NCBI GenBank assembly: GCA_017411715.1
Contig: JAFQPO010000014.1
Location: 174,258 to 238,257 of the forward strand
Reading direction: 5' to 3'
DNA length: 64,000 bases
DNA from: Bacilli bacterium
Lineage (GTDB): Bacteria > Bacillota_I > Bacilli_A > ML615J-28 > CAG-313
Position numbers and translations under genes: made by a program. Below the pieces are notes generated by a model. That model ran no database searches. It worked only from the letters and a program-made list of their open reading frames with translations, and had not been told where the DNA came from. Of the stretch, positions 53,277 through 61,502 are shown in pieces. How positions within the stretch are numbered: position 1 is the first letter of the stretch; each line of letters begins with the position of its first letter.

Positions 53277-54320
53277 ATGGAAACAAAAAATAGACATTTA
53301 AAAACAAATAAAACTAATAATGACTTAATATTTGAACCAAGTCAAGAAATTATTGACTTCAGAACAAATGGACAAATGTTATCATATGAAGTCAATAATG
53401 ATTATCAACAAAACAAAGATATCTATAAACTTAGAGAAAAAATTGCTTTAAGAAATAAAAAACGTATTGAACTAGAAAAAAAATATGGTTACATGACAGA
53501 TGAAGCCGTTAAGAAAAGATGGATTAAAGCTTTAATTGCGGTAATCGCTTACTTCTTCTTATCATTTATCTTTGTTTACGTTATCCAAATCGCTTTAATT
53601 TTTGGATATGCCTTATTACACAATGGTGATGCTGGTCTTACTGAAGATTCTCCACTTTATGCAAGCGCTATGGAATTCTATAATAGTATGACAAATATAA
53701 TCATCTATGTAATAGAACTAGCAGTAATCTTACCAATTTTATTTGGATTTGTAAAATATGACTTTAGTCGTATTTTTAGAACTACGAAAAGTACTCTAGT
53801 GGGAATCTTTACATCAATATTTAGTTTCCCAATCGTTATGGCTCCATACTTACTAGGTTTCTTTATTACATTCTTATTAGGCGGATCTGAAACTTCTGCT
53901 AACCAAGAAGCTATTGATAGTATGCTATTTGGTAAATATGGCGTAATACTAATGCTATTTGTCGCAGTTATCGGACCAATTGTGGAAGAATTAGTATTTA
54001 GAAAAGGACTACATACTCTATTATTCCCAAGAAAGAAAAACTTTGGATGGAAAATGTTACGCGCATTTATTGTTGCTTGTATTTTTGGATCTATCCATGT
54101 TGTAAGTGCAGTACTATTAAGCTTACTAAGTTTAGATTTTAGTGGAATGTTAGGTCATTTAGTTCAAGTATTCCCTTATATCGGTATGGGATTTGGATTT
54201 AGTTTCTTATATGAAATTAATGATGAAAATATTATCCCATCTACAATTGCTCATATTGGTTGGAACTCATTTTCTATTTCAACAATGTTATTACAAGTTT
54301 TATTAGAAAAATTTATGTAA
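53277..54320 (+). CDS. CPBP-family (CAAX/Abi) intramembrane metalloprotease
   Basis: EExxxR motif (GPIVEELVFRKGL), FxxxH (FGSIHV) and C-terminal H (IAHIGWN) in a polytopic membrane protein. Confidence 0.65.
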   Translation: METKNRHLKTNKTNNDLIFEPSQEIIDFRTNGQMLSYEVNNDYQQNKDIYKLREKIALRNKKRIELEKKYGYMTDEAVKKRWIKALIAVIAYFFLSFIFVYVIQIALIFGYALLHNGDAGLTEDSPLYASAMEFYNSMTNIIIYVIELAVILPILFGFVKYDFSRIFRTTKSTLVGIFTSIFSFPIVMAPYLLGFFITFLLGGSETSANQEAIDSMLFGKYGVILMLFVAVIGPIVEELVFRKGLHTLLFPRKKNFGWKMLRAFIVACIFGSIHVVSAVLLSLLSLDFSGMLGHLVQVFPYIGMGFGFSFLYEINDENIIPSTIAHIGWNSFSISTMLLQVLLEKFM

Positions 54321-56910: not shown

Positions 56911-57645
56911 TTATTTCTTATATTGATTAATTAAGTTAATTAATCTATCATACTCATTATTAAGTAATTCAACTAATAATGCTTTGAAAGGTTCCATAGT
57001 TTTTTCAACTTTGAAAGCTTCTAAGCTCGCAAAATAAGTTGTACGTACTTTAGTTTTACGAGAAATACTTACTGGTAAGAAACCATTAGCAATTAAGAAG
57101 TAATTCATCATTAAACGAGCAAGACGACCATTACCATCTAGGAATGGATGGATTTTTGCGATTTGTAAATGAGCATAACATACTTTGTCTAATACATCAC
57201 CTTGATAATTATTAATATCAAAGAAGAATTTGTTCATACGGTCATATACTTTAACGTAGTCACAAGGAATATGGCTAGATCCTTTGATTGTAATGTTAAC
57301 ATTACGATATAATCCACCTGGAATAATACCATTCATTAATAATTCATGAAGATCTTTTAAATAATCTTCAGTTAGGATAGGATTAGCTTCTGCTTTTTCT
57401 TTAACATCTTTATAAGCAAGGTAATGATTATAAACGCTGCGTACTAATGTTCCATCTCTTTTTACTGAGAAACCCATACCTTTAGTAATTGAAACAACTT
57501 CTTCAGTAGAAATTTCATAACCTTCGATACAAGCAGAGTTTCTTGTATAAACCCAAGCAAAGTTTTGATGGAATGCTTCTAACTCTTCAGCAGGTACAAA
57601 ATGTAAGTTTTCCGCTACATAAGCTTTTTTCTCTAATAAGTTCAT
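56911..57645 (-). CDS. Fic-family AMPylase-type protein with N-terminal inhibitory motif
   Basis: Canonical HPFLDGNGRLAR Fic motif; upstream SACIEG = [S/T]xxxE[G/N] alpha-inh; start moved to ATG 57645 (GAGGA SD 8 nt upstream). Confidence 0.8.
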   Translation of the reverse strand: MNLLEKKAYVAENLHFVPAEELEAFHQNFAWVYTRNSACIEGYEISTEEVVSITKGMGFSVKRDGTLVRSVYNHYLAYKDVKEKAEANPILTEDYLKDLHELLMNGIIPGGLYRNVNITIKGSSHIPCDYVKVYDRMNKFFFDINNYQGDVLDKVCYAHLQIAKIHPFLDGNGRLARLMMNYFLIANGFLPVSISRKTKVRTTYFASLEAFKVEKTMEPFKALLVELLNNEYDRLINLINQYKK

Positions 57646-57663
57646 AATCTTAATCCTCATTTC

Positions 57664-57721: not shown

Positions 57722-57763
57722 TAAAAAAAGACAAGAAATTTAAAATCAACAAATTTTCTTGTC
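57722..57763 (-). terminator. Rho-independent terminator ending the sipW/TasA-like operon
   Basis: gacaagaaattt-aaaatcaac-aaattttcttgtc (12-bp stem, one bulge) immediately after the sipW-1 stop, followed on the minus strand by U7. Confidence 0.75.
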
Positions 57764-58387
57764 TTATTCTTTATTTTCAATTTGTTTTTTCAATTTTTCA
57801 AGTTCTTCTTCAAGACGTTTTACTTCAGAATTATCTTCTTTTTTCTCTTTTTTAGGGAAGAATGTTCGCCAATAAGGTATTAATACCGCAAGACCAACTA
57901 AGAAGATAAAGAAACAAATTCCCGTAGGTGAAGTAATAATATCTCTTAAAATACCAAATCCACTAAATTTAACATCAGTATATTTACCTAAAATATCATC
58001 ATGTAAAAACTCATAGTCTTCTTCTTCACCTGTAAAATCACCAGCTGTTTTTACCGCGTATAATTTTCCAGATTCATCATACAGCAATTTAGTAATACGA
58101 TGAGTAGTAACAGATTGACCACTTTCATCATAGGCTCTATCAATATAAGTTATGATATCTCCAACTTCTAAATTATCTGTATCCACTTTTCTTACGATTA
58201 TTAAATCTCCCACACTAAGGGTTGGAACCATACTACCTGTTTCAACATTAAATGCATAAAAACCCAACATCGATGGTGCTGGGTTTTTAAATACAAATTT
58301 TGATATCATAGCATAGCACACTAAAATAGTAAACAATCCAACAATTGAATACCAAATAATACTAAAAACCGTTTTAATCTTTTTCAT
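57764..58387 (-). CDS. sipW: Signal peptidase I, SipW (archaeal/ER) type, copy 1, with C-terminal TM + coiled-coil tail
   Basis: N-terminal signal anchor, catalytic GSMVPTL (SipW SGSMEP-type), conserved His; C-terminal TM then KRLEEELEKLKKQIENKE; start set at ATG 58387. Confidence 0.7.
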   Translation of the reverse strand: MKKIKTVFSIIWYSIVGLFTILVCYAMISKFVFKNPAPSMLGFYAFNVETGSMVPTLSVGDLIIVRKVDTDNLEVGDIITYIDRAYDESGQSVTTHRITKLLYDESGKLYAVKTAGDFTGEEEDYEFLHDDILGKYTDVKFSGFGILRDIITSPTGICFFIFLVGLAVLIPYWRTFFPKKEKKEDNSEVKRLEEELEKLKKQIENKE

Positions 58388-59828
58388 TAGGTGTGATCTC
58401 TTGAGCAGCAGTAATAGTAATTGACATACTATAGCCATTTACTCCAGTACGACCAATTTCAGTATCTTGTGCATCATCATACTCATACCATGTCCATTCA
58501 ACCATAAATTGAACTTTTGAGTTAGCTTCAATAATTATACCTTGTAAGCTTAAATCTTCGAGTTTAACATAGCCTGAGTCAACAGCGCCTTCACTATCAG
58601 TACCCTTAACATAAACGTTATTCATTCTTAATTTATAACGCATTGGAATACCATCTACATTAGTATGTGAGAATTTAATATCATAGCGGATTGGTAAGTC
58701 ATCATTATTTGATAAGAAGAATGTGTAAGCACCTTTTAATCCTGGCTTTAATAATGTTGATCCATCGTAATCAGGATTTCCAAACACATCGATATTTTCA
58801 TTTTGAGACCAAGAGATAGGATTACCTAGTTCATCAAATCTAGCATCAGTTACTTCAAAAACAGGATATTCAATTGGACGCTTATTATATTGATCTAAAA
58901 TAATACCTATTCCACAAAGCGATAATAGGAAAAGGAATAGAATACATAATACTAAGATAATTGGAAAACTCTTGTGTTGGTGTTCAGTTCTGACAACAGC
59001 AGCTGGAATTCCGTCATCATCTTTCCCATCTGAAACAATCCCATTTTCAATATAAGGATAAAACTCATTAAAATTAACTTCTTGATAATCAGGGTTCTTA
59101 GAAACTTTAATATCTTCCATTAAAACACTAATCATATCTAGTGTACGATCTAATTCTTGATCAGTACGAACATATAAATTAAGTGTTCCATTAGAAATAA
59201 GTATTTTATCAAGTTCACTAACAACTTTTTTCAAGCGTCGCATCTTAGTTTTAGATTTAAACTCTAAACTAACACATAATGTATGTGCAACAAATGACAT
59301 TTCAGCAACAACAACCCCATCAAGTGAGAATGTTTCATTCTTTAATGTCATATTAGATGTAACACCTTGATAACTTAATAACTCATTTTTAATAATTGAA
59401 TAATAATTCTTATAAAGAAGCTCATTTTGTCTTAATATATTTTCAAATGTACGTGGTAAGAAAACTGTTCTTACTAATGTCATATCAATTTTCTTATTCA
59501 TATTAGGAATAACATTAGGTTTAATATGACTATATTCTTCATCAAGTTCATTTAAAATATCAGCTTCACGTTTTTCTTTTAAAAGATCATACCCTTCAGC
59601 ATTATCAAATAGTTCACGTGATCCATGAGAAAGTGTTGGAACACCAGGTCTTGTAGGTTTAGGCGCAGTATCAACTGGTGCATTAGCTTTTAAAAACTCT
59701 TCATCAGTAAACACTTCAGCAACTAGTGGTGACTTAGGCGTTTTAATACTCTCAGAGCTATCAGATGAGCCTGTTACTTCACGATTAGATGTATGATGGG
59801 AAAGCTTAGGTTTCTTTTCATCAGCCAT
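58374..59828 (-). CDS. Type-II membrane protein: about 290-aa cytoplasmic N-domain, single TM, about 170-aa ectodomain paralogous to the adjacent TasA-like secreted protein
   Basis: TM FPIILVLCILFLFLLSLCGIGII at about aa 295-317; ectodomain motifs LKPG..T...N..D, KFSHT, EWTWYEYDDAQDTEIGRTG, AAQEI align with LAPG..T...N..D, FTFTHS, DWAWVDTLEQNTIDTKVG, AEQIE of the 217-aa neighbour; AGGAGG SD. Confidence 0.45.
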   Translation of the reverse strand: MADEKKPKLSHHTSNREVTGSSDSSESIKTPKSPLVAEVFTDEEFLKANAPVDTAPKPTRPGVPTLSHGSRELFDNAEGYDLLKEKREADILNELDEEYSHIKPNVIPNMNKKIDMTLVRTVFLPRTFENILRQNELLYKNYYSIIKNELLSYQGVTSNMTLKNETFSLDGVVVAEMSFVAHTLCVSLEFKSKTKMRRLKKVVSELDKILISNGTLNLYVRTDQELDRTLDMISVLMEDIKVSKNPDYQEVNFNEFYPYIENGIVSDGKDDDGIPAAVVRTEHQHKSFPIILVLCILFLFLLSLCGIGIILDQYNKRPIEYPVFEVTDARFDELGNPISWSQNENIDVFGNPDYDGSTLLKPGLKGAYTFFLSNNDDLPIRYDIKFSHTNVDGIPMRYKLRMNNVYVKGTDSEGAVDSGYVKLEDLSLQGIIIEANSKVQFMVEWTWYEYDDAQDTEIGRTGVNGYSMSITITAAQEITPNEKD

Positions 59829-59850
59829 AATGTTCCTCCTTTCTAATAAA

Positions 59851-59921
59851 AAATTTCAGTCCTTGATAAAAGATTCAAAACCTTAAATCCTTTAGCAAAG
59901 ACTGAAATAAAATTTCAGTCT
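59851..59921 (-). promoter_or_regulatory. Intercistronic alternative-hairpin element (direct repeat AAATTTCAGTC x2 + complementary GACTGAAAT) between the TasA-like gene and the anchored paralogue
   Basis: 59900-08 gactgaaat is the perfect complement of both 59912-20 and 59853-61 atttcagtc; a 9-bp/3-nt-loop hairpin directly after the TasA-like stop, or a long-range pairing ending 10 nt from the downstream SD. Confidence 0.5.
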
Positions 59922-59936
59922 AAAATTTCTAATTAA

Positions 59937-60554
59937 TTAAGCAAGAGTAGCTGGATCATCTTCAATTTGTTCAGCTAATAATTTGTATGCAACAGTCCAA
60001 GTAGCTTTATCAGCAAGTCTACCAACTTTAGTATCAATAGTATTTTGTTCTAGAGTATCTACCCAAGCCCAATCTAAAGTCAAAGTAATTACTGCACTTT
60101 CACCTTCTTTAAGTGTAAACTCTTTAAATTCATTTAAATCAGCTTTTGTAGAAGTTTCTGCTACATCTTCAGCATCAACAACTGTATCGATTGCATATTT
60201 GTAAGCGACAGGATTTTGTAATTCTAAGCTTGCATCGCCAACAAAGATTACATCAAATGAATGAGTGAAAGTAAATTTTAAAGTAACATCAGATTCGTTT
60301 TCAACAGTTAAAGTAATAGTTTCTCCATATCCAGGAGCTAGTTTAGTAGCTTCAAATTTAAATTCATCAGCAACAGATCCATTATTATCTGCAACATCAT
60401 TAACTGTCCAAGCATATTTTGCGGCTTGAATAGTTTGAGTACCAGCATCAATTTCACTTGTATATTTAGCATATGTAGAACCTACGAAAGTTAAACTTGC
60501 ACATACTAAAGCAAAAGTGAATAATCCAAATAATAATACACGATTTCTTTTCAT
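59937..60554 (-). CDS. Small secreted protein with SipW-cognate (TasA/CalY-class) signal peptide; putative TasA-like fibre/matrix subunit
   Basis: MKRNRVLLFGLFTFALVCASLTFVGSTYAKYTSE: basic N-region, hydrophobic core, G-S-T-Y-A-x-Y-x-S resembling the GGTWAAFND / GGTFAxFxD SipW-cognate motif; beta-rich about 170-aa mature part; flanked by two sipW genes; start moved to ATG 60554 (AAGGAGA SD). Confidence 0.45.
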   Translation of the reverse strand: MKRNRVLLFGLFTFALVCASLTFVGSTYAKYTSEIDAGTQTIQAAKYAWTVNDVADNNGSVADEFKFEATKLAPGYGETITLTVENESDVTLKFTFTHSFDVIFVGDASLELQNPVAYKYAIDTVVDAEDVAETSTKADLNEFKEFTLKEGESAVITLTLDWAWVDTLEQNTIDTKVGRLADKATWTVAYKLLAEQIEDDPATLA

Positions 60555-60622
60555 ATTTTTTCTTTCTCCTTTTTTATAACTATTATACATTGAATACTAT
60601 CGTCTTATTGTATATAATAGTT

Positions 60623-61423
60623 TTATTTTCCTTTCTGTGATTCTTCAACTTCTTCAGTTGAATCACTCATAGATGTATTTGATTGTTGCTCAGCTAGAGC
60701 TTTTAAACGAGCTATTTCAGCTTCTAATTCCTTCGTTTTGTCTTGTTCTCCTTTATTATCACCCTTTAATGATAATAATAATACAATCACGAATAATGAT
60801 AAAGGTAAAATTATACATAAAATAGTACCAAGTGGTTTACTAACAAACTTCGCAAAACTTCCTAATTTAGGAATACGACCAGAATAGAATCCCACAACAT
60901 CATCCAAATCATAAGTTAACACGGGAGCAGGTTTATTAGGATTGTAATTTTTTAATCCTTTTGTATCAATAACCCATTCACCGTTTTCATTTTGATAAAC
61001 TTTTTGAAGAATATGAGTAACTAAGTAAAAGTCTTTTGAATTTTGTTTGTACTCCTTATACGTTATGTATACATTTTTTCCATTATAATCACCATTTTTT
61101 AAAGCTTCAATATCTTCATCAGTGATATTTTTAGAGAAAACTAAATCTCCAACCATTATTTCAGGTTCCATAGAGTCAGAATCAACCATACGAGGAGTAA
61201 TTCCGAAAACAGATGGTGCCTCATCAGGATTTGCAAGACCTTTAATAATGATAGTAAAGTTGACAATTAAAACTGGAATCATCAAGAGGATTAATACTGA
61301 ACCAATTATAAAACCAGCCCATGAAGCTTTAGTTGTCGGCTTATTGTTTTGCCAGTATTTTTTTAATTTTGATTCTGGCTTTTCACTTAAGCTTTGTGAA
61401 TTTTGATCTTTTTCTAGGTCCAT
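60623..61423 (-). CDS. sipW: Signal peptidase I, SipW type, copy 2, with N-terminal cytoplasmic extension and C-terminal TM + coiled-coil tail
   Basis: DSDSMEPEIMVGDLV catalytic Ser motif, conserved His; C-terminal TM then KTKELEAEIARLKALAEQQ; AAGGAGGG SD. Confidence 0.65.
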   Translation of the reverse strand: MDLEKDQNSQSLSEKPESKLKKYWQNNKPTTKASWAGFIIGSVLILLMIPVLIVNFTIIIKGLANPDEAPSVFGITPRMVDSDSMEPEIMVGDLVFSKNITDEDIEALKNGDYNGKNVYITYKEYKQNSKDFYLVTHILQKVYQNENGEWVIDTKGLKNYNPNKPAPVLTYDLDDVVGFYSGRIPKLGSFAKFVSKPLGTILCIILPLSLFVIVLLLSLKGDNKGEQDKTKELEAEIARLKALAEQQSNTSMSDSTEEVEESQKGK

Positions 61424-61465
61424 ATTAGCCCTCCTTTACAATAAAATCAAATACAAATCTAATTG

Positions 61466-61502
61466 TGTACAATATTATAGCATTGTTAAACTTAATTTGC
61501 AA
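61466..61502 (-). promoter_or_regulatory. Strong sigma-A-type promoter of the sipW/TasA-like operon
   Basis: Minus strand TTGCAA(-35, 61497-502)-17 bp-TGcTATAAT(-10, 61474-82), about 45 nt upstream of the sipW-2 SD. Confidence 0.6.

Follow-up and report, generated by a model that had tools for sequence, protein, structure and literature searches.

What does a bacterium build with two SipW-type signal peptidases that flank a secreted protein and a membrane-bound paralogue of it? The question is raised by a four-gene cassette in a stretch of 64,000 nucleotides (nt), hereafter the window, from a Bacilli bacterium (GenBank assembly GCA_017411715.1, contig JAFQPO010000014.1, positions 174,258 to 238,257 of the forward strand), in which four open reading frames (ORFs) on the minus strand, sipW1, B, C and sipW2, fill positions 57764-61423. 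A first-pass annotation, made without database searches, had placed the secreted protein in the TasA/CalY class and the cassette as a whole among accessory insertions. On the basis of the analysis described here, we consider it probable, if only somewhat so, that the cassette encodes a SipW-dependent, sortase-independent surface filament that works like the fibres of TasA or of the archaeal Tat-fimbriae (Tafi), with C as the membrane anchor. In this reading the system resembles TasA, BsaA and Tafi in its working and is built from a different protein family. The idea of a new donor-strand fibre that brings its own peptidases and anchor, raised in the first-pass annotation, remains the best one, on the strength of context and not of a TasA fold.

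Two SipW-type peptidases in one operon

Both peptidases score above the cut-off of 51.85 bits of TIGR02228, the model for signal peptidase I of the endoplasmic reticulum (ER)/archaeal type (sipW1, 55.0 bits; sipW2, 66.1 bits), and both keep the catalytic Ser and His, in agreement with their earlier assignment to the SipW type. The model of the bacterial P-type enzymes, TIGR02227, fits them poorly, at 14 and 29 bits (cut-off 47). Neither reaches the Bacillus SipW equivalog NF046067 (62.0 and 64.0 bits; cut-off 190); the two proteins are of the same class as Bacillus subtilis SipW, but not its orthologues. In sipW1, the pairs Ser84-Met85 and Thr136-His137 are invariant (alignment A6), providing a catalytic Ser and His with no Ser-Lys dyad, and sipW2 has an SGSM-type Ser, the His of a THR motif and a TAGD....D box E. 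The two peptidases are only 25% identical to each other. The MKKIKT start of sipW2 is the start found in its homologues, with which gene calls in relatives agree, and the gene overlaps the 3' end of C by 14 nt.

The wider family to which the cassette belongs was recovered from species-representative genomes with a DNA pattern for AKYT..A.VAKW, which yielded at least 120 loci; the counts given here and below for peptidases and gene order rest on subsets of these loci, among the matches listed. The Ser is present in 92 of 93 first peptidases (SIP1) and in all 67 second peptidases (SIP2), and the His in 91 of 93 and 67 of 67, respectively. A scheme in which one active peptidase is paired with a pseudo-peptidase was rejected because Ser and His are retained in both copies family-wide.

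The first-pass annotation had called the C-terminal transmembrane (TM) segment and charged tail of each peptidase unusual. The first half of that statement does not stand, as two TM helices are typical of this peptidase type according to the AbpX preprint (10.64898/2026.01.04.697558); the charged coiled-coil tail is indeed special. Its motif ELEAEIARLKA is confined to a Bacilli-like sub-branch (10 of 96 SipW1 sequences), and the cytoplasmic part of C is a candidate partner for it. The form (K/A)ELEAEIARLKA is identical in the SipW1 proteins of the window (60650-60720) and of loci L013 (7155-7910) and L014 (7167-7868), proteins that are 34–37% identical overall, and the tail of sipW2 carries a similar RLEEELEKLKK. 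Natural fusions also occur, in which one ORF is matched by the subunit family and also by the SipW-type peptidase profile (L096, 4783-6636; L109, 1604-2971; L017, 2818-4224), the first two having been checked at the sequence level and the third included from its coordinates only; in an example from a Coriobacteriia genome, the peptidase domain is followed by ..SARYATQARGEDAARVARFAW... Such fusions may hint, in Rosetta-stone fashion, that peptidase and subunit are physically linked, or they may stem from errors of assembly.

The regulatory signals of the cassette are preserved among its relatives. The spacer of 137 nt between mutS2 and sipW1 contains the sigma-A-type promoter as its only extended -10 match in a scan. 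Because promoter-like matches are abundant in this AT-rich DNA (43 observed against 33 expected), the match alone proves little; in relatives, spacers that are otherwise 60–70% identical show no change in TTGC..-17-TGCTATAAT, in the downstream TACACA or in the AAGGAG ribosome-binding site. At the other end, the terminator, which was not called by a simple terminator scan, forms a hairpin of -13.5 kcal/mol (z = -3.4), and the L002 terminator carries a compensatory change in both arms (GACAAG..CTTGTC to AATAAG..CTTATT). The view of the cassette as a self-contained operon is thus supported, with four genes between a conserved extended -10 promoter and a compensatorily kept hairpin terminator, and the four-gene cassette does lack a TapA-like gene, as had been pointed out.

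The secreted subunit and its membrane paralogue

The protein B, deposited at NCBI from a metagenome-assembled genome (MAG) as 'MAG: Bacilli bacterium', belongs to a large family. A profile search of 1.84 billion cluster representatives gathered 1,449 clusters (50% identity) at E <= 1e-3, 208 of them at E <= 1e-10, and the top matches listed are about 200 amino acids (aa) long and nearly all aligned over their full length. The consensus N-terminus of the family is MKKN..F.LG..TVFVA.LSLTLVSGT[FWY]AKYTS...G.D.A.VAKW, and the leader signature is ..SGT[FWY]A/KYTS..ARVAKW, with the predicted cut marked by the slash. No part of B is as well conserved as the leader and N-terminus, whether one compares the close clade or 100 distant members, and a segment that serves recognition and assembly should behave in this way. 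In 10 close homologues whose mature parts share about 40% identity, some 27 of the 29 leader residues do not vary, residues 1-33 are nearly invariant across the ten, and the leader DNA is 84–100% identical among relatives. The mature protein consists of a conserved N-terminal segment, KYTSE..G..T..AAKYAWTV, and a hypervariable body (at about 60000-60520 of the window). Cleavage after Ala29 is predicted from the -3/-1 rule and by analogy with TasA. The invariant leader peptides GLFTFALVC and SLTFVGSTY had no true match in 185,579 species-representative genomes (8 chance pattern matches), which places the close clade outside that collection; it is known only from metagenomes and from MAGs other than species representatives.

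No Pfam, NCBIfam, PADLOC or PHROG model and no PDB entry is matched by the sequence of B or of C; searches of the PDB with the two sequences, and profile searches with alignments A1 and A2, returned chance matches only. The AlphaFold2 (AF2) model of B has a mean predicted local distance difference test score (pLDDT) of 68.7, with a beta-sandwich core at 70–85 and with the conserved mature N-terminus unplaced in the monomer; according to this model, the fold would be a generic jellyroll.

The relationship between B and C is marginal by BLASTP (E = 0.008). A family hidden Markov model (HMM) built from 100 sequences matches residues ~338-477 of C, over profile positions 55-200, at 46–56 bits in all C orthologues, and the C ectodomain and B have the motifs PG..G, (I/V)PMRY, EW.W, DT.IG and TAAQ in common. 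The TM segment of C is homologous to the B leader (alignment A5) and lacks the STYA/KYTS cleavage motif, with GIGIILDQYNKRP at the place where B has FVGSTYAKYTSE. The HMM match and the alignment of TM segment to leader uphold the original description of a secreted subunit of about 205 aa with a type-II membrane paralogue, and they indicate that C is a protein of the B kind in which the hydrophobic segment has been retained as a signal-anchor and to which a cytoplasmic part of 286 residues has been added. The ectodomain is homologous as well to the shorter anchors of the loci L013 and L014. The cytoplasmic part, in which residues 1-100 are of low complexity and residues 100-285 form a conserved, clade-specific alpha/beta region, has no family or PDB match and is restricted to the clade, with two 90% clusters in 5.8 billion proteins.

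The spacer between B and C is highly structured (-32.5 kcal/mol, z = -5.25, with 0 of 200 shuffles as stable) and is 99% conserved where B has been replaced. It parallels a terminator-like structure after bsaA in Clostridium perfringens that gives rise to a short and a long transcript (PMC7395162). The spacer may be a partial terminator, an mRNA stabiliser or a processing site, and it may raise the level of the sipW1-B transcript and hence the ratio of major subunit to anchor.

Table 1. Positions in the window of the cassette genes, their parts and the signals that bracket them
Feature	Position	Strand	Description
sigma-A-type promoter	61474..61502	(-)	-35 TTGCAA at 61497-61502, 17-nt spacer, extended -10 TGcTATAAT at 61474-61482
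sipW1	60623..61423	(-)	266 aa; TIGR02228; N-terminal TM, exposed catalytic domain, C-terminal TM, cytoplasmic coiled-coil tail ..KELEAEIARLKA..
B ORF	59937-60554	(-)	205 aa from MKRNR, a start common to all homologues
Leader of B	60468..60554	(-)	residues 1-29, MKRNRVLLFGLFTFALVCASLTFVGSTYA; predicted cleavage after Ala29, before KYTSE
Mature B	59937..60467	(-)	~176 aa; predicted secreted jellyroll subunit
Structured B-C spacer	59829..59936	(-)	two hairpins; ends in the ribosome-binding site of C
C ORF	58374-59828	(-)	484 aa
Cytoplasmic part of C	58971..59828	(-)	residues 1-286
Signal-anchor TM of C	58896..58970	(-)	about residues 287-311 (alignment A5); helix 288-315 in a low-confidence model (pLDDT 41)
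Ectodomain of C	58398..58817	(-)	residues about 338-477; paralogue of the B jellyroll
sipW2	57764..58387	(-)	207 aa from MKKIKT; TIGR02228; N-terminal TM, C-terminal TM, short charged coiled-coil tail
Intrinsic terminator	57723..57763	(-)	12-13 bp AT-rich stem followed by T7; from folding and compensatory changes

Replacement of the subunit within a conserved gene order

Close relatives of the cassette differ sharply in B and little elsewhere. Between the window and L007/L008, the flanks are 99–100% identical in nucleotide sequence, C is 96% and sipW2 100% identical in amino acid sequence, and mature B is 56–73% (nt) and 42% (aa) identical; between L001 and L010/L011, sipW1 and C are both 100% identical at the protein level and mature B is 33% identical. 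In both comparisons the exchanged segment is bounded by the leader and the B-C spacer, which are conserved. The window and L001-L012 together contain at least five B allele types below 55% identity, and the C ectodomain is 82–97% conserved where B is at 37–83%. This pattern suggests that B is an exposed major subunit under diversifying selection. Since C is conserved across the B alleles, docking onto C would for every allele have to use the conserved N-terminal segment and framework residues of B. In L007, the exposed part of sipW1 (about 60900-61270, residues about 58-158) is likewise a mosaic, 62–79% identical in nucleotide sequence between flanks that are 99% identical. Strict co-variation of sipW1 with B was considered and rejected, as L001 and L010 share an identical sipW1 and differ in B. 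One allele, a 332-aa protein of L001 (5274-6272; P0006), is extended at its C-terminus by ~130 residues, Ala-rich and helical, that no other allele has.

Around the exchanged segment, the order mutS2-sipW1-B-C-sipW2-Fic-NtdP(-spoIVA) is found in every related metagenome contig that is long enough, with C identities of 76–100%. At greater distance, the order SipW1, B, membrane paralogue, SipW2 recurs in at least 120 genomes of gut and rumen Bacillota. In 79 of 85 loci the gene immediately upstream of B is of SipW type, and in 34 of 41 another such gene follows within 4 kb downstream. The gene next downstream of B encodes a paralogue that lacks the AKYTS motif in 31 of 41 loci; of these motif-less paralogues, about two thirds have a further TM segment, either C-terminal or as an internal signal-anchor. 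The gap between the C-like gene and the SIP2 gene has a median of 8.5 nt across the family, indicating that the two are translationally coupled. Together with the retention of Ser and His, this family-wide gene order identifies the cassette in the window as the minimal four-gene core of a conserved system of two modules, sipW1 with B and C with sipW2.

Carriers are spread over the Oscillospiraceae, Ruminococcaceae, Lachnospiraceae, Christensenellaceae, Syntrophomonadaceae, Erysipelotrichaceae, 'Tenericutes' MAGs, Bacilli MAGs and Coriobacteriia, and include the cultured Faecalicatena contorta, Hungatella hathewayi WAL-18680, Ruthenibacterium lactatiformans, Aequitasia blattaphilus, Breznakia blatticola DSM 28867, a Blautia species and an Adlercreutzia species. 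The genes next to the locus differ in the wider family (for example, DAC and IspDF, or a resolvase), and larger loci add leader-bearing paralogues, the would-be minor subunits, and giant Flg_new proteins. In L013 (13456-16645) and L014 (13204-16609), giant proteins of 2,344 and 2,872 aa end the cluster, after three extra leader-bearing paralogues; Flg_new repeats are recorded in the L014 protein only, with no other Pfam domains in either. These giant proteins may be tip adhesins.

The genes that flank the cassette in the window encode SpoIVA (561 bits), an HU/IHF-like protein, NtdP/DUF402, Fic and MutS2 (815 bits). The Fic gene (56911-57660) adjoins the cassette throughout the close clade, has a promoter-like site of its own (ATGACA-17-TGaTAGAAT) and matches the PADLOC SoFic (88 bits) and PDC-S04 candidate defence models. 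Further out, at 53277-54320 and upstream of hup and spoIVA, lies a gene for an intramembrane glutamic protease of the CPBP family (MroQ-like; 347 aa) with a long charged N-terminal extension.

A filament, a coat or a known matrix operon

The claim that the architecture of the cassette matches no described locus holds, and several known systems resemble parts of it. In the B. subtilis tapA-sipW-tasA operon, too, an ER/archaeal-type peptidase stands beside a secreted jellyroll subunit of ~200 aa, the N-terminus of the processed subunit is the assembly element and a paralogue-like accessory protein tethers or nucleates the fibre, as proposed here for the N-terminus of B and for C, respectively. 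The differences are considerable: TasA has no detectable sequence or profile relationship to B, its leader reads ..TWA/AFND.. where B has ..TxA/KYTS.., one peptidase stands against two diverged ones, TapA against a type-II membrane accessory with a cytoplasmic part of 286 residues, and of the two subunits only B has been noted as hypervariable between strains. In the sipW-bsaABC locus of C. perfringens, sipW comes first, followed by the major subunit and by secreted paralogues, and SipW is required for BsaA polymers (PMC7395162); the cassette differs in its second peptidase, its membrane-anchored paralogue and the lack of a two-component regulator. Nearest to B and C in working logic are TafA and TafF of Haloarcula hispanica, in which the Tat-fimbriae locus tafA-G encodes major and minor subunits, the S26 peptidase TafD and the membrane-anchored paralogue TafF, predicted to accept the TafA donor strand and to anchor the fibre (PMC11821415). 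That system is archaeal and exported by Tat, and TafF has a C-terminal TM segment, as do many Clostridia members of the B/C family, whereas C has an N-terminal signal-anchor and a large cytoplasmic part; the searches run gave no sequence relationship between Tafi and B.

A TIGR02228 peptidase, accessory subunits and anchors are common in TasA-superfamily loci (10.64898/2026.01.04.697558), and the cassette has this trait, with a co-located TIGR02228 peptidase and an accessory or anchor subunit. The AbpX/AbpA/CanA loci resemble it in their jellyroll subunit, co-located TIGR02228 peptidase, accessory, tip or minor components and cross-phylum distribution, and the AbpX peptidases differ in having ten TM helices (10.64898/2026.01.04.697558) against two here. 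A model for a second, non-redundant role of one of the two SipW copies is SipA/LepA of Streptococcus pyogenes (PMC4049620), a signal-peptidase-like pilus assembly factor encoded in a pilus operon. Both copies in the cassette keep Ser and His, and there is neither sortase nor LPXTG. SipA, by contrast, is not known to have the catalytic residues and acts in the assembly of a pilus that depends on sortase. The cassette does not fit such a pilus, since no sortase gene lies between mutS2 and Fic and no LPXTG sorting signal is present, B ending in ..EDDPATLA and C in ..ITPNEKD.

If the cassette does encode a filament, B would be exported by Sec with its family-specific leader and cut after ..GSTYA by a dedicated SipW-type peptidase, freeing the conserved segment KYTSE..AAKYAWTV on a strain-variable jellyroll. 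C would present the same jellyroll on an uncleaved signal-anchor and a cytoplasmic part of 286 residues, and so would hold the structure on the membrane. By beta-strand complementation, the N-terminal segment of B would dock into the conserved jellyroll of C as well as into the B subunit that follows, the outcome being a short filament or coat of B rooted on C. The peptidases would work as two modules, sipW1 with B, and C with sipW2, to which it would be translationally coupled. In the Bacilli clade, the 286-residue cytoplasmic domain of the anchor could link the fibre to the cell interior.

Several observations weigh against such a filament. As far as sequence and profile comparisons reach, B is linked to none of the solved fibre subunits: the 100-sequence alignment A2, compared by hhalign with TasA (TasA sequence verified against 8aur), gives a probability of 16% over 26 columns, with the PG..N motif only, Foldseek with the AF2 model returns no match at E <= 1e-3, and AbpX, likewise of the TasA superfamily, stops at 13 bits (E = 0.78), a level that the N-domain of the C. 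perfringens enterotoxin also attains (~13 bits). The AF2 model of full-length C is unusable (pLDDT 41), because only two 90% clusters of C exist. The cassette contains no tip, initiator or minor subunit, so that there is no evident substrate for sipW2. Finally, box E of sipW1 (residues 154-163, window 60950-60965) reads TKGLKNYNPN, without either of the two aspartates, and the activity of this peptidase may accordingly be altered or absent. The Asp of the GD pair in box E is missing from 26 of 93 SIP1 sequences family-wide, and the essential box-E Asp differs between characterised enzymes.

The most serious alternative, which we regard as possible but rather unlikely, is that B does not polymerise and is a monomeric or small-oligomer surface protein (an adhesin, shield or decoy) held one-to-one on C as a variable coat. 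A minimal cassette of one secreted subunit and one anchor agrees with this, strain-level replacement of alleles suits any exposed antigen, and the generic jellyroll predicted for B has no specific tie to fibre subunits, domains of the GOLD-like and CBM-like kinds usually not being polymers. Two dedicated peptidases and a strongly conserved mature N-terminus, however, exceed the needs of a docked monomer; the larger loci, with several leader-bearing paralogues and giant Flg_new proteins, look like multi-subunit appendages, and the closest working analogues are all filamentous. A diverged but ordinary TasA/CalY (Peptidase_M73) operon for a biofilm matrix, close to what the first-pass annotation had proposed, seems very improbable. 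SipW-type peptidases do adjoin a secreted protein of ~200 aa, the leaders are loosely alike (G-S-T-Y-A-K-Y-T-S and G-G-T-W-A-A-F-N-D), and 4 of 100 family members touch the BsaA model TIGR04090 (E ~0.003). These four matches (E >= 0.0027; cut-off 60 bits) run through the leader only, the N-terminal match amounting to 12.4 bits, and B itself has none. Neither Peptidase_M73 nor the TasA model NF046066 matches B or C at E <= 1, or any of 100 relatives at E <= 0.01, and the camelysin family is equally without a match in B or the 100 relatives. TIGR04088, the model of the SipW-cognate signal (cut-off 19 bits), finds TasA as a control at 41.1 bits and misses the B leader; the leaders of five relatives gave one match only, at 6.6 bits (E = 8.9). 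With the hhalign result, the distance of both peptidases from the SipW equivalog, and the two peptidases and membrane paralogue in place of TapA, the TasA/CalY label finds no support, and on these comparisons we reject membership of B in the TasA family proper.

Two further readings concern the setting of the cassette. The position of spoIVA 1.6 kb downstream, with synteny kept in the close clade, might suggest a feature of sporulation or of the spore surface. We give this little credence, given that the promoter is sigma-A-like, the products carry Sec leaders and the neighbours differ in the wider family, among whose carriers Adlercreutzia, Ellagibacter and the 'Tenericutes' MAGs belong to lineages that are not known to sporulate. 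The spore fibres Ena and F-ENA consist of DUF3992 and DUF4183 proteins, respectively, and a signal peptide is not mentioned for F-ENA (PMC11844507); the cassette products do not have the DUF3992/DUF4183 domains of these endospore appendages. A recently acquired accessory or mobile island would fit the adjoining Fic gene and the mosaic, low-identity segments in B and part of sipW1, but it is hardly credible in view of the same position and order in all related contigs. No integrase, repeats or mobile-element genes are present in the cassette or its immediate flanks, PADLOC, PHROG, plasmid and phage searches gave no link for the cassette, and only the interior of B and of sipW1 is exchanged, the exchange breaking off sharply where the conserved flanks begin. 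The conserved synteny shows that the cassette is no recent insertion, and the earlier description of it as an accessory insertion is not supported.

The surface filament with C as its anchor thus remains the reading we prefer for the cassette. Its extension to the whole family is more tentative, and we put it forward as doubtful but worth stating: proteins with the AKYTS leader may constitute unrecognised, widespread sortase-independent pili of gut and rumen Bacillota, made with a pair of SipW-type peptidases, rooted on a membrane paralogue and composed of a major subunit exchanged between strains. If this is true, many dominant gut and rumen Firmicutes bear a surface appendage that has so far gone unannotated; none of 100 scanned family members matches a Pfam or NCBIfam model above cut-off, and the literature searches made here gave no description of the AKYTS-leader family. 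For the specialist, the surprise lies in a system so widespread and yet unannotated, and in the swapping of its subunit at the level of strains. Given the replacement of its alleles, B is probably targeted by antibodies of the host or by phages, and is thus a possible factor in colonisation at strain level and a possible marker for strain typing, and the cultured carriers open the system to direct testing. The pair of SipW-type peptidases and the membrane paralogue would provide a compact four-gene system in which to study the start and anchoring of fibres on a single membrane without chaperones, and the principle of a dedicated signal peptidase combined with a jellyroll subunit would then extend beyond the TasA superfamily as it is now defined.

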